DNA from: Bacteroidales bacterium
GTDB taxonomy: Bacteria > Bacteroidota > Bacteroidia > Bacteroidales > UBA7960
Direction of reading: 5' to 3'
Assembly (NCBI GenBank): GCA_003552075.1
Contig: PUOJ01000123.1
Span: forward strand, 1 to 63,169
Length of the DNA stretch: 63,169 bases
Under the pieces are notes generated by a model, which saw only the letters and a program-made list of their open reading frames with translations, made no database searches and was not told where the DNA came from. A program made the translations under genes and the position numbers. This document shows, piece by piece, positions 4,066 through 63,169 of this stretch. Position 1 is the first letter of the stretch. Each line of letters opens with the position of its first letter.

Positions 4066-5688
4066 ATGAATAAATTGTTGCTTCTGGGTGATGAAGCGAT
4101 AGCCCAGGCAGGAATAGATGCAGGCATGTCCGGAGTATTTGCATACCCTGGGACGCCTTCCACTGAAATTACCCAATATGTACGGAGTTCCCCTGAGACC
4201 AAAAAGAAGGGCATCGTAGCCACCTGGGCTGCGAATGAGAAAACTGCCGCAGAGCAAGCCCTGGGCATGTCGTATGCCGGCAAACGGGCCATGACCTGCA
4301 TGAAGCACGTCGGACTCAACGTGGCTGCCGATGTCTTTATGAATGCAGCCATCACGGGTGCGAACGGCGGATTGCTTTTTGTCGTGGCCGATGACCCCTC
4401 CATGCACTCCTCCCAAAACGAACAGGACTCGCGGGTCTATGGCAAGTTTGCCATGATTCCCATCCTGGAGCCTTCCAACCAACAGGAGGCCTACGACATG
4501 GTGCACATTGGCTTCGACATCTCGGAAAAGCTGCAGGTGCCGGTACTGATGCGCATCACCACCCGGCTGGCCCACTCCCGGGCTGGCGTGGCCAGGAAGG
4601 ATACGCGCGAACAGAATCAGTTCAAGCTGCCGGAAGACCTGAAACAGTTTATCCTGCTACCCGCCATCGCCCGCAAGCGCTACCAGATGCTTCTCGACAA
4701 CCAGGAAGCGTTTCAGCAACTCGCGGATGAATCGCAGTACAACCAGTTCTATCCGGCTGAAGATACCACGCTGGGCATCATCGCCTGCGGACTGGCATAC
4801 AACTACCTGATGGAGAACTATCCGGACCGGAAGGTGCCGCACCCGGTGGTGAAGGTGACCCAATACCCGCTTCCCCAAAAGCATATCCGGGAGCTGTATG
4901 ACCAATGTGACGAGATCCTTGTAATTGAAGACGGCTACCCGGTGGTGGAAGAGATGCTCAAGGGTTTCATGGACAGAGGTAAGAAGATCAAAGGGCGGCT
5001 GGACGGTTCCCTGCCGCGCACAGGCGAGCTAAACCCGACCATCGTGGGCAAGGCGCTGGGCATCCCGGTTCCCGAAACCCTCCCGGTGCCCGACCTGCTG
5101 GCCAACAGGCCACCATCGCTGTGCAAAGGCTGTCCGCATATCGACAGCTTCCTCGGGCTGAATGAAGCCATTGAACAGTATGGCAAGGGCCGTGTGTTCT
5201 CAGACATCGGATGCTATACGCTCAGCGCATTGCCTCCCTATCACTCAATCAACACCTGCGTAGACATGGGCGCATCCATCACCATGGCCAAAGGTGCCGC
5301 AGATGCAGGCATGCGTCCTGCCGTTGCGGTGATCGGCGACAGCACCTTCACCCACTCAGGGATCACCGGACTGCTTGACGCAGTAAATGACAAAAGCAAC
5401 ATCACGGTGGTGATCCTCGACAATGCCACCACGGCCATGACCGGCGGACAACCATCATCGGCATTTGAGCGCCTTGAGGACATCTGCAAGGGAGTAGGTG
5501 TGGAAGAAGACCACATCCGGGTGATCAAACCGCTGAACAAACGCCATGAAGAAAATACCCAGGTGTTTAAAGAGGAGCTTGCCTATGACGGTGTCTCTGT
5601 CATCATCCCGCGCCGGGAATGCATCGTAACACTCAATAAACGGATGCGGCAAAAGTTCAAGGACAAAGAGAAGGCAGAGAAGAAGTAA
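4066..5688 (+). CDS. iorA: indolepyruvate:ferredoxin oxidoreductase, alpha subunit
   Basis: 540 aa. The N-terminus LLLGDEAIAQAGIDAGMSGVFAYPGTPSTEI, the TPP region GDSTFTHSGITGLLDAV and the motif LCKGCPH are all present. An iorB-like gene follows. Confidence 0.9.
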   Translation: MNKLLLLGDEAIAQAGIDAGMSGVFAYPGTPSTEITQYVRSSPETKKKGIVATWAANEKTAAEQALGMSYAGKRAMTCMKHVGLNVAADVFMNAAITGANGGLLFVVADDPSMHSSQNEQDSRVYGKFAMIPILEPSNQQEAYDMVHIGFDISEKLQVPVLMRITTRLAHSRAGVARKDTREQNQFKLPEDLKQFILLPAIARKRYQMLLDNQEAFQQLADESQYNQFYPAEDTTLGIIACGLAYNYLMENYPDRKVPHPVVKVTQYPLPQKHIRELYDQCDEILVIEDGYPVVEEMLKGFMDRGKKIKGRLDGSLPRTGELNPTIVGKALGIPVPETLPVPDLLANRPPSLCKGCPHIDSFLGLNEAIEQYGKGRVFSDIGCYTLSALPPYHSINTCVDMGASITMAKGAADAGMRPAVAVIGDSTFTHSGITGLLDAVNDKSNITVVILDNATTAMTGGQPSSAFERLEDICKGVGVEEDHIRVIKPLNKRHEENTQVFKEELAYDGVSVIIPRRECIVTLNKRMRQKFKDKEKAEKK

Positions 5689-5691
5689 GTA

Positions 5692-5827
5692 GGCTCTTGG
5701 CTATTAGCTATTGGCTGTTGGCTGTTGGCAAGAAAGCCAAAAGCTAAAAGCCAATAGCCAATAGCAAACAGCATTCCGCTTGAAAACACAAACACCAAAT
5801 AACCATGCAGTTAAAAACATACACACG
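5692..5827 (+). repeat. heptamer-built hairpin element, copy A (hairpin plus conserved leader tail)
   Basis: Tandem 7-mers GGCTCTT GGCTATT AGCTATT GGCTGTT GGCTGTT GGC, then loop AAGAAA (5730-5735), then the complementary 7-mer run. Arms 5700-5729 and 5736-5765 pair at 26 of 30 positions. The tail 5766-5827 is conserved with the copies at 24988-25055 and 57847-57909. Confidence 0.9.
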
Positions 5828-6409
5828 ATGAAAAACGACATCATATTAGCAGGAGTCGGCGGCCAGGGCATCCTGTCCATTGCAGCGATCATTGGCTATG
5901 CCGCCGTACAGTCAAACCTTTATCTCAAACAGGCAGAGGTGCACGGCATGAGCCAGCGTGGCGGCGACGTGCAGTCGCATCTGCGGTTGTCGTCGGATGA
6001 GATTGCCTCCGACCTCATCCCGGAAGGCAAGGCCGACATGATCATCTCGGTGGAGCCGATGGAGTCGCTCCGGTACCTCCCCTACCTTTATAAGGAGGGC
6101 TGGCTGATCACCAACACCCAGCCCTTTGTCAACATCCCCAACTATCCGGCCATCGAAGAGGTGATGGCCGAGATCCACAAACTGCCCAGGTACGTAGCAC
6201 TGGATGCGGAGAAAATGGCTGACGAGGCAGGCAGCAAGAAAGCCGCCAACGTAGTCATACTGGGGGCTGCCTCGCCATTTATAGATATCCCCGTCGAAAA
6301 ATTGGAGGAGGCGATCCGCTTCCTCTTTGGCAAGAAAGGAGAAGACCTCGTGGAAATCAACCTGAAGGCGCTGCGTGCCGGCCGCGAATTCGCCAAAGAA
6401 AATATGTAG
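5828..6409 (+). CDS. iorB: indolepyruvate:ferredoxin oxidoreductase, beta subunit
   Basis: MKNDIILAGVGGQGILS...HGMSQRGG is the pyruvate/2-ketoacid oxidoreductase gamma-type domain. I use the ATG at 5828; the track start at 5780 is a TTG inside the repeat tail. Confidence 0.85.
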   Translation: MKNDIILAGVGGQGILSIAAIIGYAAVQSNLYLKQAEVHGMSQRGGDVQSHLRLSSDEIASDLIPEGKADMIISVEPMESLRYLPYLYKEGWLITNTQPFVNIPNYPAIEEVMAEIHKLPRYVALDAEKMADEAGSKKAANVVILGAASPFIDIPVEKLEEAIRFLFGKKGEDLVEINLKALRAGREFAKENM

Positions 6410-9635: not shown

Positions 9636-11369
9636 TCAGCTCTCGTCCTGCTGCTTTTTAGAATACAGGAAGCGCTTGATCTTCTTTGTAGGCGTTTTTT
9701 CAAAGGGCTCCACCTGTTCTTCCAGGAGCGTTAGCCTGGAAAACCGGTTTAACCGCGAGTTTACGCGCCTTTGCACCTCTTCCAGGTGTTGCTTCACTTT
9801 ATCCTGCACCTGGCCGTACAGCTGATTGGCTGAAGCTTTCAGGTCCTGGTAGCTTTGGCCGGCGGATTCCCTGAGCTCGTGATAGCGCTTGTCAATCTCC
9901 TCGTAGTTAAGGTGCACCTTGGCCACAAGTTTGCCTTTCAACTCATAAACAAGCGACTCCTGCACGTGCTGCTGGTTGTTGATCACTGCCTCAATGTCTT
10001 CAGGGTAAATGTTTTCACCTGTCGAACTGATGATCACATTCTTCAACCTGCCCTTGATAAACAGGTAACCATCCTCATCGATGACACCAAGGTCTCCGGT
10101 CTTGAACCAGCCATCGGAGGTGAATACCTCACGTGTCAGCTCAGGCTCTTTGTAATAGCCCTGCATGATGTGGTCACCCTTTGCGAGGATCTCTCCTTCG
10201 CCGGTATGCGGATTCGGATCCAGGATGCGCATCTCCTGGCCAGGAATGACGGGACCCGTAGATTGGAATTTTGTACTGGACGGTCCGCATCCTGCCACCA
10301 GGGGCGAGGTCTCTGTCAAGCCATAGCCAATGGCATAAGGGAAGCCGGCATTGCGCAGGAACTGTTCTGTTTCTGCGTTCAGCTTGGCCCCACCGATTCC
10401 AAAGAAGTGAAGATGACCTCCGAAGGCCTTGTTGATCTTTTTGATGGCCAGCTTATGGAAAAGCTTTTTGATGTGCTTTTGCCGTGTGAGGGTGCGCATG
10501 ACTTTGCTGCCAGTCAGCTTAGGCAATACCCTGTTCTGATACACTTTCTCAATGATCAAGGGGACCGTCAGAATCATGGTGGGCTTCACCTGCTGCATGG
10601 CAGGCAAGAGCACTGCCGGTGTGGGCAGCTTCTCCAGGTAGGATACGGATGCACCTGACATGAATGGAATAATGAACCCGATGGTGCATTCATAAGTATG
10701 AGGCAGCGGCAGTACGGACAACAGACGGTCTTCGTGCGTCACAGCCTGCATTCTGAGCGTATTTTCTGCATTGGCAAGAATGTTCTTATGGCTCAGCATG
10801 ACCCCCTTGGGTTTGCCTGTGGTTCCCGAAGTATACAGGATGGCTGCGAGGTCATCCTCTTCGGGCTCCTCCTTTATAGGGGCTGCAATCATCTGCGTTT
10901 CCTCTTCTGACTCGACGATGGTGCCGTTCAGCTCCAGGTTGCCTAGGCTCAGGCTCGCAAAATTATCCATCAAAATGGCAAATTGCAGCCGGTCAGGAAG
11001 CCCGCCACACAATTTATAGGCCTGTTTTTCGGAGACAATGATGCCTTTGGCTTCACTGTGCTCCAGGATCTTGGCAATTTCTTCCTCGGTAAAGTCAATC
11101 AGCACGGGAACTACCACAGCTCCCAGGGAGGTGACTGCCAGGTAGGATATGCCCCAATTGGGCATATTCTGGGCCAGCAGCACGACCTTGTCGCCTTTTT
11201 GGATCCCATTTTTCATCAGCTGATCACGCAATTGCGCAACCTGTTTGCCCACCTGCGCATAAGTCAGGGCTTCCTGTCCTACAAAACCCAGTGCCGGACG
11301 CTCAGCATACGATGTGGTGCTATGATGGAGCAGGGAGAGAAATGTCTTTTTTGAGATTTTGGTCATCAT
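9636..11369 (-). CDS. long-chain fatty acid--CoA ligase (AMP-dependent synthetase)
   Basis: AMP-binding signature ILYTSGTTGKPKGVMLSHKN, plus GYGLTETSP and a C-terminal ...KIKRFLY. The start is set at MMTKISKK (11369); the longer track ORF has an implausible Cys-rich extension. Confidence 0.9.
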   Translation of the reverse strand: MMTKISKKTFLSLLHHSTTSYAERPALGFVGQEALTYAQVGKQVAQLRDQLMKNGIQKGDKVVLLAQNMPNWGISYLAVTSLGAVVVPVLIDFTEEEIAKILEHSEAKGIIVSEKQAYKLCGGLPDRLQFAILMDNFASLSLGNLELNGTIVESEEETQMIAAPIKEEPEEDDLAAILYTSGTTGKPKGVMLSHKNILANAENTLRMQAVTHEDRLLSVLPLPHTYECTIGFIIPFMSGASVSYLEKLPTPAVLLPAMQQVKPTMILTVPLIIEKVYQNRVLPKLTGSKVMRTLTRQKHIKKLFHKLAIKKINKAFGGHLHFFGIGGAKLNAETEQFLRNAGFPYAIGYGLTETSPLVAGCGPSSTKFQSTGPVIPGQEMRILDPNPHTGEGEILAKGDHIMQGYYKEPELTREVFTSDGWFKTGDLGVIDEDGYLFIKGRLKNVIISSTGENIYPEDIEAVINNQQHVQESLVYELKGKLVAKVHLNYEEIDKRYHELRESAGQSYQDLKASANQLYGQVQDKVKQHLEEVQRRVNSRLNRFSRLTLLEEQVEPFEKTPTKKIKRFLYSKKQQDES

Positions 11370-24105: not shown

Positions 24106-24987
24106 TTATCCGTAGATTTCTCTTTTTGCAGCCTTCAGGGTGTTCATCAGCAAGGAGACAATGGTCATGGGCCCTACACCCCCTGGAACGGGCGTGATGT
24201 GGGAGGCTTTCTCCGAAACTTCGTCAAAGCGCACGTCGCCGATCAGCCTGAACCCCGACTTGGTCTTATCTGAAGGCACCCGGTGGATGCCCACATCGAT
24301 CACGACCGCACCTTCCTTCACCATGTCGGCAGTAACAAATTCGGGCCTGCCAATGGCCACGATCAGTATATCGGCCTTGGAGGTGATCTCCGCAAGGTTT
24401 TGTGTTTTGCTGTGACACACCGTCACCGTGGCATTGCCGGGCTCCTCATTACGGGCCATAAGCAAACTCATCGGCTTGCCTACGATATTGCTTCTGCCCA
24501 GGACTACGCAATTTTTTCCGCGGGTATCAATGCGGCTTCGCATCAGCAGCTCCATGATCCCATGGGGCGTAGCCGACACATACGAAGGCAGTCCAATGGT
24601 CATGCGGCCCACGTTTACCGGATGGAAGCCATCCACATCCTTCTCAGGGGCAATGTGCTGGATCACCTTTTGGTTGTCGATATGATCCGGCAGGGGCAAC
24701 TGCACAATGAGCCCATCGATTTCATGGTCATTGTTAATGAAGTCGACCGCCTCCAGCAATTCCTCCTCAGTGACATCTGTGGGGAAGCGATAGGTAGACG
24801 AATCAAACCCAACCTTCTTGCAGGCTTTCGCCTTGTTGTTGACATAGGTTTCACTGGCCGGATCCTCTCCCACCAGGATGGCTGCCAGGTGAGGCACTTT
24901 TTCGCCCTGGTCCTTCATCTTTTGTACTTCACCCGCAATCTCTTCCTTGATGGCTGCAGATATTTGTTTCCCGTCAATAAGCTTCAT
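24106..24987 (-). CDS. folD: bifunctional methylenetetrahydrofolate dehydrogenase/cyclohydrolase
   Basis: [17 protein letters not shown]..., ...LPLPDHID..., ...GRSNIVGKP..., ...[11 protein letters not shown]. Confidence 0.97.
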
Positions 24988-25129
24988 ATAAATGTGTTTG
25001 TGTTTTTCAACTAATTGGTTGTCTGGTGTTTGTATTTTTAAGCGGAATGCTGTTTGCTATTGGCTCGTGGCTATTAGCTTTTGGCTTTCTTGCCAATAGC
25101 CAATAGCTAATAGCTAATAGCCAAAAGCC
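24988..25129 (-). repeat. heptamer-built hairpin element, copy B (hairpin plus conserved leader tail)
   Basis: On the minus strand it starts 3 nt after the ffh stop. Arms 25056-25085 and 25092-25121(-25129) pair at 24 of 30 positions around a loop that reads AAGAAA on the minus strand. The tail 25055-24988 ends at the folD ATG. Confidence 0.9.
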
Positions 25130-25132
25130 GGC

Positions 25133-26476
25133 TTACCGCGGACGCATGCCTTGCATGTTTTGCATCATGCTGGACATTTTTCCCTTGCCGCCTTTCGACA
25201 TCATACGCATCATTTTGCGGGTATCCTCAAACTGCTTGACAAGCTTGTTCACCTCCGTGATATCCGTGCCTGCACCCCTGGCGATGCGCTTTCGGCGACT
25301 GCCGTTCAGAACAGCCGGATTTTCGCGTTCTTCCGGTGTCATGCTGTAAATAATAGCCTCAATGCCCTTGAACGCATCATCATCCAGGTCTACATCCTTT
25401 ATGGCTTTACCCATGCCCGGGATCATCCCCATCAGGTCCTTCACATTACCCATCTTTTTGATCTGCTGCAACTGCGAAAGGAAATCATTGAAGTTAAACT
25501 GGTTTTTGGCGATCTTTTTCTGGAGCTTCCTGGCTTCATCCTCATCATACTGCTCCTGGGCCTTTTCAACAAGTGACACGATGTCACCCATGCCCAGTAT
25601 CCTGTCTGCCATCCGGCGTGGATGAAACACATCGAGGGCATCTGGCTTCTCCCCGATACCCACGAACTTGATGGGCTTGTCTACCACAGACCGGATGGTC
25701 AATGCCGCACCGCCCCTTGTGTCGCCATCAAGCTTTGTAAGCACCACACCGTCGTAGTCCAGACGCTCATTAAAAGCCTTCGCAGTATTCACGGCATCCT
25801 GACCGGTCATGGCATCCACCACGAAAAGCGTTTCATGTGGATTTAAGGCCTCCTTCAGTGAAGAGATCTCATTCATCATCTCCTGGTCGATGGCCAAACG
25901 ACCGGCAGTATCCACCACAACCACCTGGTGACCCATGTTCTTGGCATGCTTCACGGCACGTTTGGCGATGCCCACGGGGTCTTTCTTGTCTTCTTCGGTA
26001 TACACCTCGACCGCTATCTGGCTGCCAAGCACCTTCAACTGATCGATCGCAGCAGGACGGTAAACGTCACCGGCAACCAGCAACACTTTCTTGCTCTTCT
26101 TGTCCTTCAGATAATTTGCCAGCTTGGCAGAAAAGGTCGTCTTACCACTACCTTGCAAACCGGCTACCAGGATGATGGAGGGATTGCCCTTGAGGTTTAT
26201 TTCCTCGTGTGTCGAGCCCATCAGCTCAGCAAGCTCCTCGTGCACCACTTTCACCATCAGCTGACCTGGCGAAACAGCGGTGAGCACATCGCGCCCAAGG
26301 GCCTTTTCCTTCACTTTCTCGGTGAAGGACTTGGCAATCTTGTAGTTTACATCCGCATCCACAAGCGCACGACGCACATCCTTCAGCGACTCAGCAATGT
26401 TTACTTCGGAGATATGGCCCTGTCCCTTGATGACCTTAAAGGCCTTGTCCAATCTATCACTTAAATTGTCAAACAT
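25133..26476 (-). CDS. ffh: signal recognition particle protein
   Basis: P-loop [21 protein letters not shown], and a Met-rich C-terminal M domain. Confidence 0.97.
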
Positions 26477-30923: not shown

Positions 30924-30955
30924 AGCTGTTGCATGCATTTGCAACAGCTTTTTTT
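30924..30955 (+). terminator. intrinsic terminator of rpmB
   Basis: 10-bp perfect stem AGCTGTTGCA / TGCAACAGCT with a 6-nt loop, followed by a T-run. Confidence 0.85.
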
Positions 30956-30974
30956 ATTTCTGCTTGCCTTTTAA

Positions 30975-31098
30975 ATGAAACGGGCCATGCCAATATATTG
31001 ACACACACGAGAATGATTATTGTCGCGGGGACTTTTGGACTAAGTTGGCTTTTGGCTTTCTTGCCAATAGCTAATAGCCAAAAGCCAAAAGCCAAAAC
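30975..31098 (+). repeat. composite repeat, copy C (M module plus heptamer hairpin with inverted loop)
   Basis: The M module ATGAAACGGGCCATGCCAATATATTGACACACACGAGAATGATTAT (30975-31020) is homologous to 52076 and 52271. A spacer follows, then the hairpin GGCTTTTGGC-TTTCTT-GCCAATAGC... (31029-31098). Confidence 0.85.
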
Positions 31099-31211
31099 AC
31101 AAGCAGATGTTAAAGAATAATAAGATGGGCCACCAAGGCCATGGATATTTTCCAGTTTCACTGATTATTTTTACCTTTATACCTTATACTGTAAAATTCA
31201 GAAGTTAAAGC

Positions 31212-36812: not shown

Positions 36813-36908
36813 GCGGAGAGGGATTGCCTCGACTTTTGACTGGCAGCGCGAATTTATTCAGCGGAGAGGGGTTGCCTCGACTTTTGACTGGCAGCGCGAA
36901 TTTATTCT
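36813..36908. repeat. 48-bp tandem direct repeat, 2 copies
   Basis: GCGGAGAGGGATTGCCTCGACTTTTGACTGGCAGCGCGAATTTATTCA (36813-36860) is repeated at 36861-36908 with 2 mismatches. It lies in the dnaK/tpx convergent spacer. Confidence 0.9.
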
Positions 36909-40295: not shown

Positions 40296-40413
40296 AGGCC
40301 AGGTGCGGACAGCCCAAGTGCTGCCCCAGCTGGTTTCATACACCCCATGAAGGGCTGCCAGGCCCATCAGGCAATTTTTGTTCCTTACCCGATCGATCAT
40401 CGGCGCAAGTTTC

Positions 40414-40497
40414 TTCTTACTTCTTACTTCCTGCTTCCTACTTCTTACTTCCTACTTCCTACTTCCTACTTCCTACTTCCTACTTCTTACTTCCTTC
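40414..40497. repeat. heptanucleotide tandem array (TTCYTAC) x12
   Basis: Twelve contiguous 7-mers: TTCTTAC x2, TTCCTGC, TTCCTAC, TTCTTAC, TTCCTAC x5, TTCTTAC, TTCCTTC. There is no complementary arm nearby. Confidence 0.95.
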
Positions 40498-40718
40498 TTG
40501 CCTCCGTGGGAATTTTCTCCGCCTTCGGGGAAAGTCTTTTTTTGTTTATTTAAAAAAACCAACTTGACAAACAATGATTCTTATGTTTTAACAATAATTA
40601 AACACACAACATATTGATTTTTGCATTTTATTGCTTAATTTTATGTCGCAAATGAGGATTTAAACCCAACGAAACGCGCTTTTTGCTCAACCTATTTTGT
40701 TAAAAAAATTTAAAGCGC

Positions 40719-49808: not shown

Positions 49809-50588
49809 CTATTCAGCTGGCTTGTCTTCAGCGGCATCACCCGAATCTTTCTTTGCAGGCTCGCTTGTCTTTTTAGTTTTGGAAGCGGTCGTTTTCCCGG
49901 TCTCAGCCTTGGGGTCATCCGCCTTTTTTGTGGCTGCCTTTTTGGTGCTTGCCTTTTTGGTTTCTGCTTCGGAAGCCTCCTTTTTCTTTGCAGCCTTGGC
50001 TGTAGTTTGCTTGGCTTCAGCCTTGGGCGCGTCTTTCTTTTTGGGGGCAGCCTTCTTTGCAGCCGGCTTTTTAGCTTCTGCTTCGGGAGCATCCTCTTTC
50101 TTGGCTGCCTTGGCAGTGCTCTTTTTGGCTTCTGCCATGGGGGCTTCTTCTTTTTTGGCGGCAGCTTTCTTAGCAGGCGACTTTTTCGGAGCAGCTTTTT
50201 TCGCTTCCTTTTCGTCAGCAATGCTTTCAGCCGGAGCTTCTGCCACGGCAACCTCAGCCTCCTGGGCTTTTGGCGCCGCCTTAGGTGCAGCTTTTGGCTT
50301 GCCATTGCCTGCTTTCGCATCCTTTACCGCCTCTGTCAACGGCTCCACGGATACGTGCGACTTGTTGCCGGCCTTCTTGGTGAAAACCACTTTGCCATCG
50401 ATCAGGGCAAAAAGGGTATGGTCCTTGCCCATGCCTACATTTCTGCCAGGATAGTGCTGCGTGCCACGCTGTCTGACAATAATGTTACCAGCCGTGGCAA
50501 CAGACCCACCAAAAATTTTCACGCCAAGCCGTTTGCTATGCGACTCGCGACCGTTTTTCGAGCTACCAACTCCTTTCTTATGTGCCAT
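49809..50588 (-). CDS. rpmA: 50S ribosomal protein L27 with a 175-aa Lys/Ala/Glu/Pro-rich C-terminal extension
   Basis: The first 84 aa ([24 protein letters not shown]...[20 protein letters not shown]) are canonical L27. The same frame continues without a stop through AKKAAPKK-type repeats to 49809. Confidence 0.85.
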
Positions 50589-51935: not shown

Positions 51936-52075
51936 GCGTCAAATTGTCGAAAAGTCGAAAAGTCCGGGCAAAGGTAATGGAAATCGGACTTGCCATTGCA
52001 TCAGGCATCGGTGCAAACCAAATATTTTCAAATAATGCGTATATTTGAGAAATACCTGTGGCAAAAAAAGAAACC

Positions 52076-52361
52076 ATGAAACGAGCCATGCCAATATATT
52101 GACATACACGGGGATGATTATCGTCACGGCGGCGTTCAGACTGAGTAGGCTTTTGGCTATTAGCCATTGGCTATTGGCAAGAAAGCCAACAGCTAAAAGC
52201 CAATAGCCAATAGCAGTCTTGTTGAAAACATAAACGTTAGAAAACCAACAATTTAAAAAAATATAAACACATGAAACGAGCCATGCCAATCTATTGACAC
52301 ACACGAGAATGATTATGTCATGGCGAGTTCCATGTGCCCGAAATATAAAAATTATAAACAC
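52076..52361 (+). repeat. composite repeat, copy D (M module - hairpin - tail - M module)
   Basis: M module at 52076-52128, hairpin arms at 52148-52178 and 52185-52214 around AAGAAA, tail at 52215-52270, and a second M module at 52271-52318. The 16-nt direct repeat TATAAACACATGAAAC occurs at 52262 and 52353. Confidence 0.9.
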
Positions 52362-52868
52362 ATGAAACTGGAACTAATTAGGGGCGACATTGCCAACCAA
52401 CCAGATATGGATGCCATTGTAAATGCAGCAAATGCCCAGCTGCGCACGGGTGGCGGGGTAGCTGGTGCCATCCACCGGGCTGCAGGCCCGGGCCTGGAAG
52501 AAGAATGCCGGCCTTTGGCTCCGATTCAGCCTGGACAGGCGGTGATTACAGGCGCGCATCAGCTGCCCAATAAATATGTGATCCACTGCCTGGGGCCAGT
52601 ATACGGTCGCGACAAGCCCAGCGACAAGCTTTTGGCTGCCTGTTATAAAAATGCCCTTAAGCTGGCTGAAGAACACCGGCTCAGGTCCATTGCTTTTCCT
52701 GCGATCTCCACCGGTGTCTTTGGCTACCCCCTGGATGATGCGGCGGAAGTGGCCGTCAGCACGATTCAGGAAATGACCGGCACGCTTGAACACCTTGAAA
52801 CAATTCGTATGGTGCTTTTCAGCGAGCGCGACCTTCAGGCATTTCATCGGCAAGTTGCTGGCAAATAA
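52362..52868 (+). CDS. macro domain protein (O-acetyl-ADP-ribose deacetylase-like)
   Basis: GDIANQPDMDAIVNAANAQLRTGGGVAGAIH...AFPAISTGVFGYP. ATG at 52362. Confidence 0.85.
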   Translation: MKLELIRGDIANQPDMDAIVNAANAQLRTGGGVAGAIHRAAGPGLEEECRPLAPIQPGQAVITGAHQLPNKYVIHCLGPVYGRDKPSDKLLAACYKNALKLAEEHRLRSIAFPAISTGVFGYPLDDAAEVAVSTIQEMTGTLEHLETIRMVLFSERDLQAFHRQVAGK

Positions 52869-57756: not shown

Positions 57757-57823
57757 TCGCGCTTGACATGGCAAGTTTTGTGGTCAGCAAGCACAAAAAA
57801 CACAGCACACGGAAACAACCAAA

Positions 57824-57909
57824 GCCAAAAGCTAAAAGCCAATAGCAAACAGCATTCTGCCTGAAAACAGAAACGCCAGACAGCCAATAACTTGAAAAAA
57901 CATTAACAA
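57824..57909 (+). repeat. heptamer hairpin element, copy E (right arm plus conserved leader tail only)
   Basis: GCCAAAAGCTAAAAGCCAATAGC (57824-57846), then a tail that is near-identical to copies A and B and ends at the ATG at 57910. There is no complementary left arm. Confidence 0.85.
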
Positions 57910-58689
57910 ATGAAAGAATATCAACACATACAGGTTATTTTTGAGGGGAAGGTCATGGAGGTGGTGCTGAACAGGCCGGAAAAGCGCAACGCCATTGACG
58001 GGGTGATGGCCGCTGAAATCATGGATGTCATTGGCTGGGCCGCCCATAACCAGGATGTCCGGGTGGTAATCCTGCGGGGGAAGGGGCCTGTTTTCTGTGC
58101 CGGGGCCGACCTGAAGTTCATGCAAAGAACAGACCTGGAAGGGAGCGCACGCCCCTCGGCGGTGCTGGCTAAACTTTTCCAGGCCACCTATCTTTTCAGG
58201 AAACCCCTCATCGTGGTTTCACATGGCAAAGCCATGGGTGGCGCCCTTGGACTGATCGCAGCAGCAGACTTCGTGCTGGCGACCACCGATGCGGAGTTTG
58301 CCTTCAGCGAAGTGAAGCTGGGGCTGGTTCCTGCCACCATTTCTCCATATGTGACCAAGAGGATGGGGGAAAGCAAGGCACGGCAGCTTATGTTGCTGGG
58401 CGATACATTTTCAGCTGCGGATGCCTTGGCGGCAGGCCTGGTAGATAAAACCGGCGATCATGACACACTGGAATCCTATAAATCATATCTTTGCAAACAC
58501 TTTACCCAAAATGCACCCGGCGCCATGATGGCCACCAAGCGCACCATTCAGCACATATCGAATGTACCCCTGGATGAACACGCCATCACCCATACGCTGA
58601 AGGTGCTGGACGACACCCGCAAGGGAAGCGAAGCCCGGGAAGGCATGCAGGCATTCCTGGAAAAACGGAAGGCCTGGTGGCAACAATAG
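57910..58689 (+). CDS. enoyl-CoA hydratase/isomerase family protein (possibly methylglutaconyl-CoA hydratase)
   Basis: Crotonase pattern LNRPEKRNA...VVILRGKGPVFCAGADLK. Specificity is inferred only from context. Confidence 0.8.
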   Translation: MKEYQHIQVIFEGKVMEVVLNRPEKRNAIDGVMAAEIMDVIGWAAHNQDVRVVILRGKGPVFCAGADLKFMQRTDLEGSARPSAVLAKLFQATYLFRKPLIVVSHGKAMGGALGLIAAADFVLATTDAEFAFSEVKLGLVPATISPYVTKRMGESKARQLMLLGDTFSAADALAAGLVDKTGDHDTLESYKSYLCKHFTQNAPGAMMATKRTIQHISNVPLDEHAITHTLKVLDDTRKGSEAREGMQAFLEKRKAWWQQ

Positions 58690-61991: not shown

Positions 61992-62990
61992 ATGGAAGAC
62001 CGAAAAAAAGACCATATCGACCTGGCCTTTGCTTCCCAAACACTCACATATCAGCTGGATAAGCGGTTTATGTACGAGCCGGTGCTGAGCAAGCACCCCC
62101 AGGAGGCCATTCCAGAAAGCACTTTCATTGGGAAAAAACTCAAGTTGCCCCTATGGGTCTCCAGCATGACGGGCGGAACCAAAATGGCCGGGCACATCAA
62201 CAAAAACCTGGCAAGGGCGTGCAAAGAGTTCGGCATGGGAATGGGACTGGGCTCCTGCCGTATCATTCTCGATGACGACACCTACTTTCCCGACTTTGAC
62301 GTACGCGACCTCATCGGAGACGACCTTCCGCTGTATGCCAATCTTGGCATCAACCAGCTGGAAATCCTTCAGATGGGAAAAAAGACGGAGAAAATCAACC
62401 AACTGGTTGACAAACTCCGGGCCGACGGTTTAATCATCCACATCAACCCCATGCAGGAGTGGTTTCAACCGGAAGGTGACCGCCTGCAAAGATCACCTGA
62501 AGCGTCAATCGCGCAGCTGCTTGAAGAGGTGGATTTCCCCGTGATGGCCAAGGAGGTGGGCCAGGGCATGGGCATGGAAAGCCTCCGCAGCCTCCTTAAA
62601 ATGCCGCTTGCAGCAATTGAATTCGGGGCTTTCGGGGGTACAAACTTTGCAAAAGTTGAGTTGCTGCGCGACAAAAACCAGCCTGAAGAGTTGTTTGAGC
62701 CGCTTTCGTTCATCGGCCACGATGCCGCCGAAATGCTCAATATGATTAACCAAATCGTTTACGAAGAAAAGGAAGCGATTCGCTGCAAACAGCTCATCGC
62801 ATCAGGCGGCATCAAATCATTCCTCGACGGATATTACCTCGTCAGAAAATCTGTACTTCCCGCCATCTATGGCCAGGCATCCACATTCCTTAAACATGCC
62901 CGGGGCGATTATGAAGAATTGCGTAAATTCGTACAATACCAGATCAAAGGGTTAGAGATGGCATACGCTTTCCTTCGAATCAGAGGGTAG
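61992..62990 (+). CDS. fni: type 2 (FMN-dependent) isopentenyl-diphosphate delta-isomerase
   Basis: KKDHIDLA..., ...PLWVSSMTGG..., ...GMGLGSCR..., ...AKEVGQGM..., ...ASGGI. Confidence 0.85.
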   Translation: MEDRKKDHIDLAFASQTLTYQLDKRFMYEPVLSKHPQEAIPESTFIGKKLKLPLWVSSMTGGTKMAGHINKNLARACKEFGMGMGLGSCRIILDDDTYFPDFDVRDLIGDDLPLYANLGINQLEILQMGKKTEKINQLVDKLRADGLIIHINPMQEWFQPEGDRLQRSPEASIAQLLEEVDFPVMAKEVGQGMGMESLRSLLKMPLAAIEFGAFGGTNFAKVELLRDKNQPEELFEPLSFIGHDAAEMLNMINQIVYEEKEAIRCKQLIASGGIKSFLDGYYLVRKSVLPAIYGQASTFLKHARGDYEELRKFVQYQIKGLEMAYAFLRIRG

Positions 62991-62992
62991 AA

Positions 62993-63036
62993 GGCTTCTG
63001 GCTTTTGGCTTTTAGCTGTTGGCTGTTGGCAAGAAA
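62993..63036 (+). repeat. heptamer hairpin element, copy F (left arm plus loop only)
   Basis: It begins 2 nt after the fni stop: GGCTTCT GGCTTTT GGCTTTT AGCTGTT GGCTGTT GGC AAGAAA. Other 7-mer words (TTAAGGG, GTTTGAG...) follow instead of the complementary arm. Confidence 0.8.
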
Positions 63037-63169
63037 GTTAAGGGTTAATGAGTTAAGGGGTTACTGGTTTGAGGTTTGAAGTTTTTGCATACCAGCTTGA
63101 AGCCATCGCATTCCCGGACTTTTTGACCTTTAGACATTTTGACTTTTAGACCTTTTTTACGCATGAAGA

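Follow-up and report, generated by a model that had tools for sequence, protein, structure and literature searches.

A probably mobile mosaic repeat of soda-lake Bacteroidales is centred on a heptamer-built hairpin, as found between iorA and iorB

We analysed a 63,169-nt stretch of DNA from a Bacteroidales bacterium (GTDB lineage Bacteria; Bacteroidota; Bacteroidia; Bacteroidales; UBA7960; GenBank assembly GCA_003552075.1, contig PUOJ01000123.1, positions 1 to 63,169; hereafter the window), in which the spacer between iorA and iorB holds a hairpin built from tandem 7-nt units (heptamers). The hairpin is the middle module of a larger mosaic unit of about 190 nt. The original prediction, made from the letters of the window, had taken the element to be the hairpin only; the repeat extends well past it on both sides, as a leader and a tail. 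The best explanation, which we consider probable, is that the element is mobile but non-autonomous, a mosaic of about 110-280 nt in a clade of soda-lake Bacteroidales with the hairpin as its slippage-prone centre.

The hairpin itself was re-read as first described. The spacer is 139 nt long: the iorA stop codon TAA (5686-5688) is followed by GTA, and iorB starts with the ATG at 5828. Between them lie the left arm (5692-5729; GGCTCTT GGCTATT AGCTATT GGCTGTT GGCTGTT GGC), the loop AAGAAA (5730-5735) and the right arm (5736-5765; GCCAAAA GCTAAAA GCCAATA GCCAATA GC), and the inner 30-nt arms form 26 Watson-Crick pairs out of 30 plus one G-T. Relatives had been named at five further places in the window, and Tandem Repeats Finder reported period-7 arrays at six of the six loci. 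The two-heptamer pattern RGCTNTTRGCTNTTGGC, allowing at most one mismatch, matched 26 times, always within these loci, compared to 0.03 +/- 0.17 matches in shuffles of the window. Lists of open reading frames (ORFs) and Pfam matches bore out the claim that all six loci are intergenic, and the three copies said to begin 2-3 nt past a stop codon have the junctions that were quoted. Predicted RNA folds were strongest for the type copy between iorA and iorB (5686-5775; -43.5 kcal/mol, z -6.1 versus shuffles), followed by 25045-25138 on the minus strand (-39.7 kcal/mol, z -5.1), 52140-52222 (-35.9 kcal/mol, z -5.2) and 31020-31105 (-30.5 kcal/mol, z -3.4); a copy with only a right arm (57800-57870) gave no fold above shuffles (z +0.5). 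The type copy was also predicted to form a stable hairpin as single-stranded DNA (-25.2 kcal/mol, z -5.5).

Repeat finding in the window revealed a conserved tail that fills the interval between the right arm and the following ATG at four loci (5766-5827, 24988-25055 on the minus strand, 52215-52270 and 57847-57909) and a conserved ATGAAAC leader that precedes the hairpin at 30975-31044 and 52076-52147 and recurs without a hairpin at 52271. With modules defined from oriented copies and profile searches, the leader (M2) is about 70 nt long with the consensus ATGAAAC.CCATGACAGGATTTTTGACACACAGGAGGATGATTATTGTCACGGGGGCGTTCAGACTAAGTA, the central module is usually a GGCTNTT / AANAGCC hairpin with the loop AAGAAA, and the tail (M4) is about 60 nt of A-rich, unstructured sequence with the consensus GTCCTGTTGAAAACATAAACACCAGATAACCAAT.AGTTGAAAAATATAAACAC, ending in ...AAACAC with ATGAA directly after it. 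Copies resemble one another from ATGAAAC up to and including ATGAA; automated logos of these boundaries were used only qualitatively, because they were noisy where the regular expression caught the tails of preceding units. Both M2 and M4 flanked the hairpin in the orientation of its loop in 82 of 114 hairpins, and the remainder had M4 only (17), M2 only (4), neither module (8) or reversed flanks (3). The loop AAGAAA was found in 96/109 pattern matches. Among the 106 hairpins with a flank, loop and flanks had the same relative orientation in 103 and the opposite one in three (31057-31062 in the window, which reads TTTCTT, and two copies outside it, L096 and L103), an inversion of the kind that arm-to-arm flip-flop recombination would generate.

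Different modules can take the central place: between M2 and M4, some units carry an array of GACNTTTY 8-mers, another small hairpin (M1) or no module at all. Units can further stand in tandem, accommodate extra sub-modules nested in M2, and lose parts. The family is therefore a mosaic with constant ends in which the heptamer hairpin is the commonest central module. A tandem arrangement is seen at 52076-52361 of the window, where a complete unit (52076..52270, plus strand) occupies the 5' untranslated region (UTR) of a Macro-domain gene and comprises M2 (52076-52147, starting ATGAAAC), the left arm (52148-52178), the loop (52179-52184), the right arm (52185-52214) and M4 (52215-52270, ending AAACAC). 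It is followed by a second, partial unit without a hairpin (52271..52361, plus strand; ATGAAAC...TATAAACAC) that abuts the Macro gene start ATGAAAC at 52362.

Close relatives either lacked the unit or carried other repeat modules at orthologous loci, which identifies the unit as an insertion. The comparison of iorA-iorB spacers that the original prediction had proposed placed the orthologous type copy in relative L104 and showed relatives L105-L111 to be without the element. The spacer holds the same hairpin at 95% IorB (92% DNA) identity, other 7-mer or 8-mer modules still ending in ...TATAAACAC-ATG at 93% and 88%, right arm and tail only at 87%, an unrelated hairpin in a spacer of 92 nt at 85%, and only 24 nt at 82%. 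The half-unit form, right arm plus tail, is that of L107 and resembles a remnant at 57821..57909 of the window. We also observed a GAGGATG-based hairpin in the iorA-iorB spacer of L106 (1072-1200) and, in the relatives at 85% IorB identity (L108/L109, 1109-1200), a 92-nt insert with its own hairpin (CCGGAAGGTAAG...CTTATCCTTACCGG). This unrelated insert suggests that different small elements have repeatedly landed at the iorA-iorB site.

Insertions were delimited at other loci as well. Three relatives at 85-89% DNA identity (L112-L114) align with the Macro locus up to 52081 and resume at 52365, lacking 283 nt (52082-52364), or one and a half units, and have ...ATGAAAGCC/ATGAAAACC as their start region. 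A 113-nt unit is present in L059 relative to L003, and L003 in turn holds, relative to L059, a 177-nt unit in which an 8-mer array replaces the hairpin. A 151-nt unit in L008, absent from L078, coincides precisely with the start codon of a gene whose product begins MNFTLKIWRQ; with ATGAAT in the filled allele and ATGGAT in the empty one, the working start codon is now supplied by the element. Between ffh and folD, L115 (98% FolD identity) has the unit with three left heptamers rather than five, and L116 (93%) has an unrelated spacer and no unit. The genome that holds L115 is without the Macro insertion, which indicates that insertions differ in age. Filled and empty sites thus compared differ by one unit adjoining a start-codon ATGAAAC or ATG, and ATGAAA(C/T) flanks filled sites on both sides and occurs once in empty ones (L059/L003; window/L112-L114). 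Because this repeat is always one sequence, it may be a recombination core or part of the element rather than a target duplication. L013 and L036 were considered as a further filled/empty pair and rejected, as the surrounding spacer could not be aligned. A long TTCCTCNN array was noted in the EamA-Macro spacer of L114 (~1180-1300), and turnover of short tandem repeats between genes seems to be general in this clade.

The remaining window copies are partial. The type copy lacks a leader and fills the iorA-iorB spacer (5689..5827, plus strand), its foot GTA (5689-5691) completing TAAGTAG with the iorA stop codon and its M4 tail (5766-5827) reaching the ATGAA of iorB at 5828. On the minus strand, a partial unit (24988..25132) spans the interval from the ffh stop codon (25133-25135) to the folD ATG (24985-24987), with left arm 25092-25129, loop 25086-25091, right arm 25056-25085 and tail 24988-25055. 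At 30975..31097 (plus strand), between the rpmB terminator and a downstream CarboxypepD_reg-like gene (31212), the leader (30975-31044) is followed by a loop-inverted hairpin (short arm 31045-31056, loop TTTCTT 31057-31062, long arm 31063-31097) without M4; this is the copy first given as 31029-31098, which does exist, but with 31045-31097 loop-flipped relative to its flanks. The remnant at 57821..57909 (plus strand) consists of a right arm (57821-57846) and M4 (57847-57909) between genes for a CitMHS transporter and an enoyl-CoA hydratase, with ATGAA following at 57910. A last copy (62991..63084, plus strand) lies directly behind the stop codon TAG (62988-62990) of the ORF at 61992-62990, with left arm 62993-63030 and loop 63031-63036. 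In place of the right arm it has GTTAAGG/GGTTTGA heptamers (63037-63084) that pair with the left arm by G-U only, so that pairing is possible only as RNA of the plus strand (-34 kcal/mol, z -3.2); the gene downstream lies beyond the end of the window. Flanking genes assigned by Pfam are thus iorA and iorB, ffh and folD, the CitMHS transporter and enoyl-CoA hydratase genes, an EamA-family gene divergent from the Macro-domain gene, and rpmB followed by the CarboxypepD_reg-like gene.

Placement relative to genes was not random. Among de-duplicated M4 tails with a callable neighbour, 66 pointed toward a co-oriented next ORF and 22 were opposite, and the tail ended no more than 30 nt from the ORF start in 38 of the 66. 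The sequence at the tail end, AAACACATG, was not a general start-site context in the window, which ruled out the tail end as the ordinary start context of this lineage (AAACACATG being no general feature of window starts). Where leader-less copies stand behind a gene, its stop codon is adjacent to, or provided by, the foot TAAG(T/A/C)(A/T)G; stop codons supplied to upstream ORFs are also reported for GTAG repetitive extragenic palindromes (REPs) (PMC3733652). Copies also occur inside operons, between iorA and iorB and, in L008, between the flanking gene and the gene starting MNFTLKIWRQ, as well as inside a 5' UTR. At the Macro gene the conserved domain start MKLELIRGD lies at 52362 (168 aa). 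Gene callers extend the protein N-terminally to 176-178 aa (proteins P0121-P0127), and the longer call for the window protein P0121 (178 aa) would start within the inserted unit (52320-52361).

The family proved to be large and narrowly distributed. An exact scan of 185,579 reference genomes with a 22-base core gave 16 matches, 15 of them in one metagenome-assembled genome (MAG) from soda-lake sediment (Bacteroidales CSSed10_80) and the other in a second soda-lake MAG. A loop-agnostic scan of metagenomes gave 86 stretches, nearly all from Kulunda soda-lake sediment assemblies, and viral contigs gave no matches. In total these public scans yielded about 100 further copies outside the window, in place of the few, randomly placed ones that would have spoken against a genuine family. 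A contig of MAG GCA_003555045.1 has essentially the same sequence as the window. An uncultured Bacteroidales group, ML635J-40, is abundant in these soda-lake sediments (PMC6146748), and we infer that the window organism belongs to it. As part of the explanation favoured here, the element is probably confined to a clade of uncultured soda-lake Bacteroidales.

We examined how the hairpin changes between copies. Arms of 4+4 heptamers are modal, counts per arm range from 1 to 19, and left and right counts are uncorrelated (r = -0.09), with at least 19 left heptamers against 3 right ones in the extreme case. Orthologous copies differ by 14 nt, in one arm only. Such one-arm changes by whole heptamers fit slipped-strand mispairing during replication. 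Paired in register, the arms form blocks of 6 bp, each divided from the next by an A-A mismatch at N; a G-U at position 10, which is fixed, and an A-C at position 17, which is frequent, both go back to the founder copy. Contingency tables and pair counts from 27 copies of at least 4+4 heptamers gave no compensatory covariation beyond shuffles: 83% of cells pair, yet 463/500 shuffles score as high. As a test for the transcribed strand, G-U and A-C mismatches were counted (66 vs 50), a comparison that is uninformative because the two founder-inherited positions dominate it. Even so, orthologous copies do not decay unchecked. Between the window and L104, divergence was 0.19-0.21 at third codon positions and 0.078 in the spacer, and five of five arm substitutions fell at the unpaired N position of the heptamer. 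In other orthologous pairs, substitutions amounted to 0-6% of the hairpin compared to 4-12% of the flanks, with indels being numerous. Purifying selection acting on the stem or motif and homogenisation among copies would each account for the apparent retention of the paired heptamer positions.

The expression context of the unit bears on whether the hairpin ends transcripts, as the original prediction had suggested in proposing a partial terminator. An intrinsic (rho-independent) terminator or attenuator between genes would account for the strong stem right behind stop codons at three loci. Read in either orientation, however, the stem is not followed by a T/U run, and a terminator scan of the unit found 0 sites. 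Canonical stem-plus-T-run terminators elsewhere in the window, at 30926-30962 behind rpmB and at ~40510-40545 behind a heptamer array at 40413, indicate that the organism uses them. Copies moreover lie inside a 5' UTR and within operons, splitting the subunits of one enzyme at iorA-iorB, and have no promoter box to restart transcription. With no U-tract behind the hairpin and no promoter of its own in the unit, the element is not a terminator, and a terminating role is disfavoured to the point of being very improbable. The Bacteroidetes -7 box TAnnTTTG was found on the sense strand of the unit in only 6/79 copies, with relaxed near-matches on the antisense strand only, and a sigma-70 promoter scan of the unit stayed at shuffle level. 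A Bacteroidetes-type -7 box, TATATTTG (52040..52047, plus strand), lies upstream of the Macro-locus unit, is kept in relatives and is not part of the element; with TATATTTG upstream of the insertion, the whole unit is placed in the transcribed leader. Since it has neither a promoter box nor a U-tract, the unit is probably transcribed inside 5' UTRs and polycistronic mRNAs, with the tail predicted to be unpaired up to the ATG. Rfam gave 0 matches at the gathering score across the window and only chance-level matches to the full unit (E 0.15-0.8), and no tRNA or tmRNA was found in the window.

If the hairpin is transcribed, it might owe its existence mainly to selection by the host, stabilising or processing mRNA as a 3' barrier behind the upstream cistron or as a 5' stem-loop that shields the downstream one, with dispersal being secondary. 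REPs in the E. coli malE-malF spacer have an mRNA-stabilising role. Consistent with such a function here are the stable folds (z -3.4 to -6.1), the three copies that begin 2-3 nt past a stop codon, the 66 versus 22 co-orientation with the downstream gene, the conserved loop sequence (96/109) and orientation (103 versus 3), the slower change of orthologous copies relative to third codon positions with substitutions only at the unpaired N, and the copy at 62993, which keeps its pairing by G-U only. We nevertheless regard this explanation as unlikely, given that compensatory covariation is absent (463/500 shuffles as high), G-U (66) and A-C (50) mismatches occur in nearly equal numbers, the lengths of the two arms show no correlation and may differ grossly, unfoldable half copies persist, and close relatives have at the same spacers no hairpin or unrelated 7-mer or 8-mer direct repeats. 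A contribution as an mRNA 3'-end stabiliser, likewise raised in the original prediction, is possible, with no covariation in its support. A protein-coding role for the unit would draw on the ATG of the leader, which opens a frame of ~30 codons through the left arm for a hydrophobic peptide with a cationic end and stays open to the loop in 28/39 copies. Nine of nine variants in length between this ATG and the foot shift the frame, codon positions vary to similar extents (4.7 / 4.5 / 3.9, with no third-position excess), the frame after the arm shifts with each heptamer gained or lost, and the hydrophobic-then-lysine-rich makeup follows automatically from T-rich and A-rich heptamers; on the frameshifting indels and the flat variation we rejected the coding reading, which has the smallest chance of any considered here. 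Almost as improbable is a DNA-level binding array for a regulator or nucleoid protein, made of the TTGGC-N6-GCCAA palindrome and half sites spaced by 7 bp. In its favour, the GCT-TT core of the heptamer and the palindrome next to the loop hardly vary; against it, the flanking genes are functionally unrelated, the 7-bp period is off the DNA helical repeat, copy number per array is unstable and no candidate protein is known.

A further alternative is a REP/REPIN system, in which the hairpin would be a long REP, read as single-stranded DNA and copied by a single-copy RAYT (REP-associated tyrosine transposase, TnpA-REP). In its favour, the commonest foot, TAAGTAGGC, places GTAG at the stem base, the foot gives upstream ORFs stop codons as GTAG REPs do (PMC3733652), the DNA hairpin is stable, the mosaic clusters resemble bacterial interspersed mosaic elements (BIMEs), and RAYTs of subclasses 2.4 and 2.6 are known from Bacteroidetes, those of 2.4 together with 'long' REPs (PMC6006769). 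REPs are short imperfect palindromes of 20-40 nt with stems of 5-13 bp in many extragenic copies. More than 90% of the members of most REP families carry a GT[AG]G foot (PMC3733652, PMC6006769). The hairpin studied here is extragenic and multi-copy, but its stems are heptamer arrays of 20-35 nt, and GT[AG]G is present in only 25/79 feet, where the upstream TAAG is better conserved. Insertions are bounded by ATGAA(AC), at distances of ~70 nt and ~60 nt from the hairpin, hairpin-less units insert as well, and a Y1 transposase was not found in ~780 kb of flanking sequence, a weak test with approximate queries. Together these observations make a REP/REPIN system a rather poor candidate, less probable than a host-selected RNA element and more so than a terminator.

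Comparison with known repeats places the mosaic unit in a familiar class. The original prediction had suggested that it might be REP/BIME-like or resemble transposable elements of the miniature inverted-repeat type (MITEs); a dispersed mosaic family, with its ~100 further copies, is what was found, and strict membership of the REPs or of the MITEs did not hold. The unit is small and non-coding, and a parent insertion sequence was not found in its flanks. Its ends, ATGAAACGCCCATGAC... and ...TATAAACAC(ATGAA), read off the consensus sequences rather than by alignment, are not terminal inverted repeats, which argues against MITE membership, and only a weak sub-terminal resemblance was seen (ATTTTTGACAC vs ATTTTTCAAC). 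Since the tests for the REP foot and for terminal inverted repeats failed, we file the unit among small mosaic intergenic repeats, under no named family. Its nearest analogues are BIME and BOX mosaics, BrickBuilt and the heptamer repeats of cyanobacteria (STRRs). The mosaic organisation of BIME, BOX and BrickBuilt repeats is matched, M2 and M4 enclosing a variable and exchangeable centre, with clusters and nesting. BIME/REP clusters of enterobacteria and REPINs of Pseudomonas are likewise non-autonomous, high-copy extragenic palindromes in mosaics, often lie right behind stop codons that they can supply, and as transcribed hairpins can protect mRNA 3' ends (PMC3733652, PMC6006769). In contrast to them, the arms described here are 20-35 nt arrays of 7-nt units with a mismatch every 7 nt (REP stem 5-13 bp), the GTAG tag is weak (25/79), the boundaries at ATGAA(AC) are far from the hairpin, the link to the start codon of the next gene is strong, and no RAYT is known for the unit.

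Within Bacteroidales, the BrickBuilt MITE of Porphyromonas gingivalis is also intergenic, multi-copy and host-restricted, with a leader, tandem repeats and a tail, but its bricks are 23-nt direct repeats rather than two opposed heptamer arrays forming a hairpin, it has small inverted-repeat ends and measured bidirectional promoter activity, where our unit showed neither terminal inverted repeats nor a canonical promoter box, and no start-codon junction has been described for it (PMC4596501). BOX elements of Streptococcus pneumoniae (boxA-boxB(n)-boxC) share conserved end modules around a centre of variable copy number, stable RNA structures, a location near genes, clusters and nested insertions (PMC10969869). 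They differ in their phylum, in their unrelated sequence, in a centre that is a 45-nt direct repeat, and in having no ATGAA-bounded insertion. The head-to-tail intergenic arrays, with copy number in 7-nt steps, are of the STRR type. STRR and TAACTGA repeats are likewise intergenic tandem 7-nt units with strain differences in 7-nt steps and units containing stop codons, and TAACTGA arrays, known from Beggiatoaceae, cyanobacteria and five Bacteroidetes, are mostly oriented toward start codons and end just before them (PMC4679880). The earlier statement that no equivalent was known from Bacteroidota therefore needs qualifying, in view of the intergenic direct heptamer repeats in five Bacteroidetes (PMC4679880) and of BrickBuilt (PMC4596501). 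STRR and TAACTGA repeats are plain direct arrays of unrelated unit sequence, with no conserved loop and no leader/tail unit. The units here, RGCTNTT and AANAGCY, occur in Bacteroidales and match none of the named STRR units; STRR1-3 of cyanobacteria differ from them in sequence. Correia (NEMIS) and ERIC elements are also small and co-transcribed, form long RNA hairpins and can alter mRNA processing or stability. Their hairpin consists of the element's own terminal inverted repeats, with a TA target duplication in Correia, whereas the hairpin here is internal and the ends are not inverted repeats. The class is familiar; a hairpin built of heptamers and an insertion bounded by start codons are unusual.

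For the mobile mosaic element that we favour, we propose the following course. A trans-acting enzyme would copy the unit onto ATGAA(AC), a motif typical of Met-Lys/Asn gene starts, and integration would either be directed to ATGAA start contexts or survive only there. The unit would bring its own ATGAA behind an open A-rich leader and would usually close the frame of the displaced start before the hairpin; the ORF from the left ATGAAAC closes before the foot in 29/33 units, near the ~67% expected by chance among copies that are non-independent. With its own start codon and an open leader, the unit would leave the downstream gene translatable, and the insertion would be tolerated. Leader-less copies would end up behind an upstream gene, with its stop codon within the hairpin foot (TAAGTAG). 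As part of a longer transcript, the stem (-30 to -44 kcal/mol) would at most impede exonucleases or provide a site for processing. More tentatively, the unit may home to start codons, an enzyme of the HUH/Y1 type or a site-specific recombinase with a 7-nt core integrating it at ATGAA(AC) as a portable 5' UTR that regenerates the start codon behind an A-rich leader and rewires the target gene's leader while leaving the gene intact; the heptamer hairpin could then be a folded single-strand recognition structure. The term 'start codon' is absent from the text of a 2024 review of prokaryotic MITEs (PMC10969869).

Several observations weigh against a mobile element of this kind. The orientation bias could reflect selection after random insertion rather than targeting, and evolution slower than synonymous together with the conserved loop could mean a host function, not a selfish element. 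No Y1 (IS200/RAYT-type) transposase matched among 3,955 ORFs in ~780 kb of flanking sequence, a weak test because its query sequences (IS200 TnpA, YafM) are approximate and it covered flanks rather than whole genomes, and a likewise weak test of the same flanks found no recurrent or multi-copy neighbouring ORF and no parent insertion sequence. The ATGAA(AC) repeat may represent a target duplication, a core for recombination or a piece of the element, all of which are compatible with the junctions, and L013/L036 and L008 are not clean cases. Copy counts come from pattern-ascertained, fragmented assemblies, and what we say of the unit as RNA we infer throughout.

Other short repeats accompany the family. 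The window array at 40413-40499, which precedes the terminator at ~40510-40545, consists of twelve tandem CTTCCTA/CTTCTTA heptamers whose complement, TAGGAAG/TAAGAAG, is the same unit as the foot (TAAGAAG/TAAGTAG) before hairpin left arms; in L005/L067 the foot itself is expanded three times. The 8-mers of the GACNTTTY family (GTCGAAAA on the other strand) occur in the window at 51946-51964 and 63117-63156 and also in L003, L004, L007, L078 and L105. They lie just upstream of start codons, for example that of the EamA gene, and in relatives they can replace the heptamer hairpin between leader and tail or, as in L105, fill the iorA-iorB spacer. A metagenome contig of OCTX01 (L021, ~11150-11230) carries an AGCTGTT/AGCAGTT heptamer hairpin with the loop AAAAAA and neither leader nor tail, between what we take, by eye, to be a ribosomal protein L25 (ctc)-like gene and a pth-like gene; such hairpins may thus occur independently of the mosaic unit, or in other lineages. 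Two more tandem repeats in the window are found at 36813-36907 (48 nt x 2, 97% identical) and 49953-50186 (114 nt x 2.1, 80%).

In practical terms, these units break metagenome assemblies and mislead gene callers, through spurious ATGAAAC starts and extended N-termini as at the Macro gene, and their heptamer copy number offers markers for strain typing. The family adds a well-delimited repeat to Bacteroidota, a phylum whose small non-autonomous repeats are poorly catalogued, and indicates that heptamer repeats in the style of cyanobacteria can be built into hairpins inside a mobile unit. If the start-codon junction is a true choice of target, it would represent an unusual insertion specificity and a natural 'leader-swapping' device. 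Bacteroidota initiate translation without Shine-Dalgarno sequences, and in such a phylum the effects of the unit on translation would, if true, be of particular interest.

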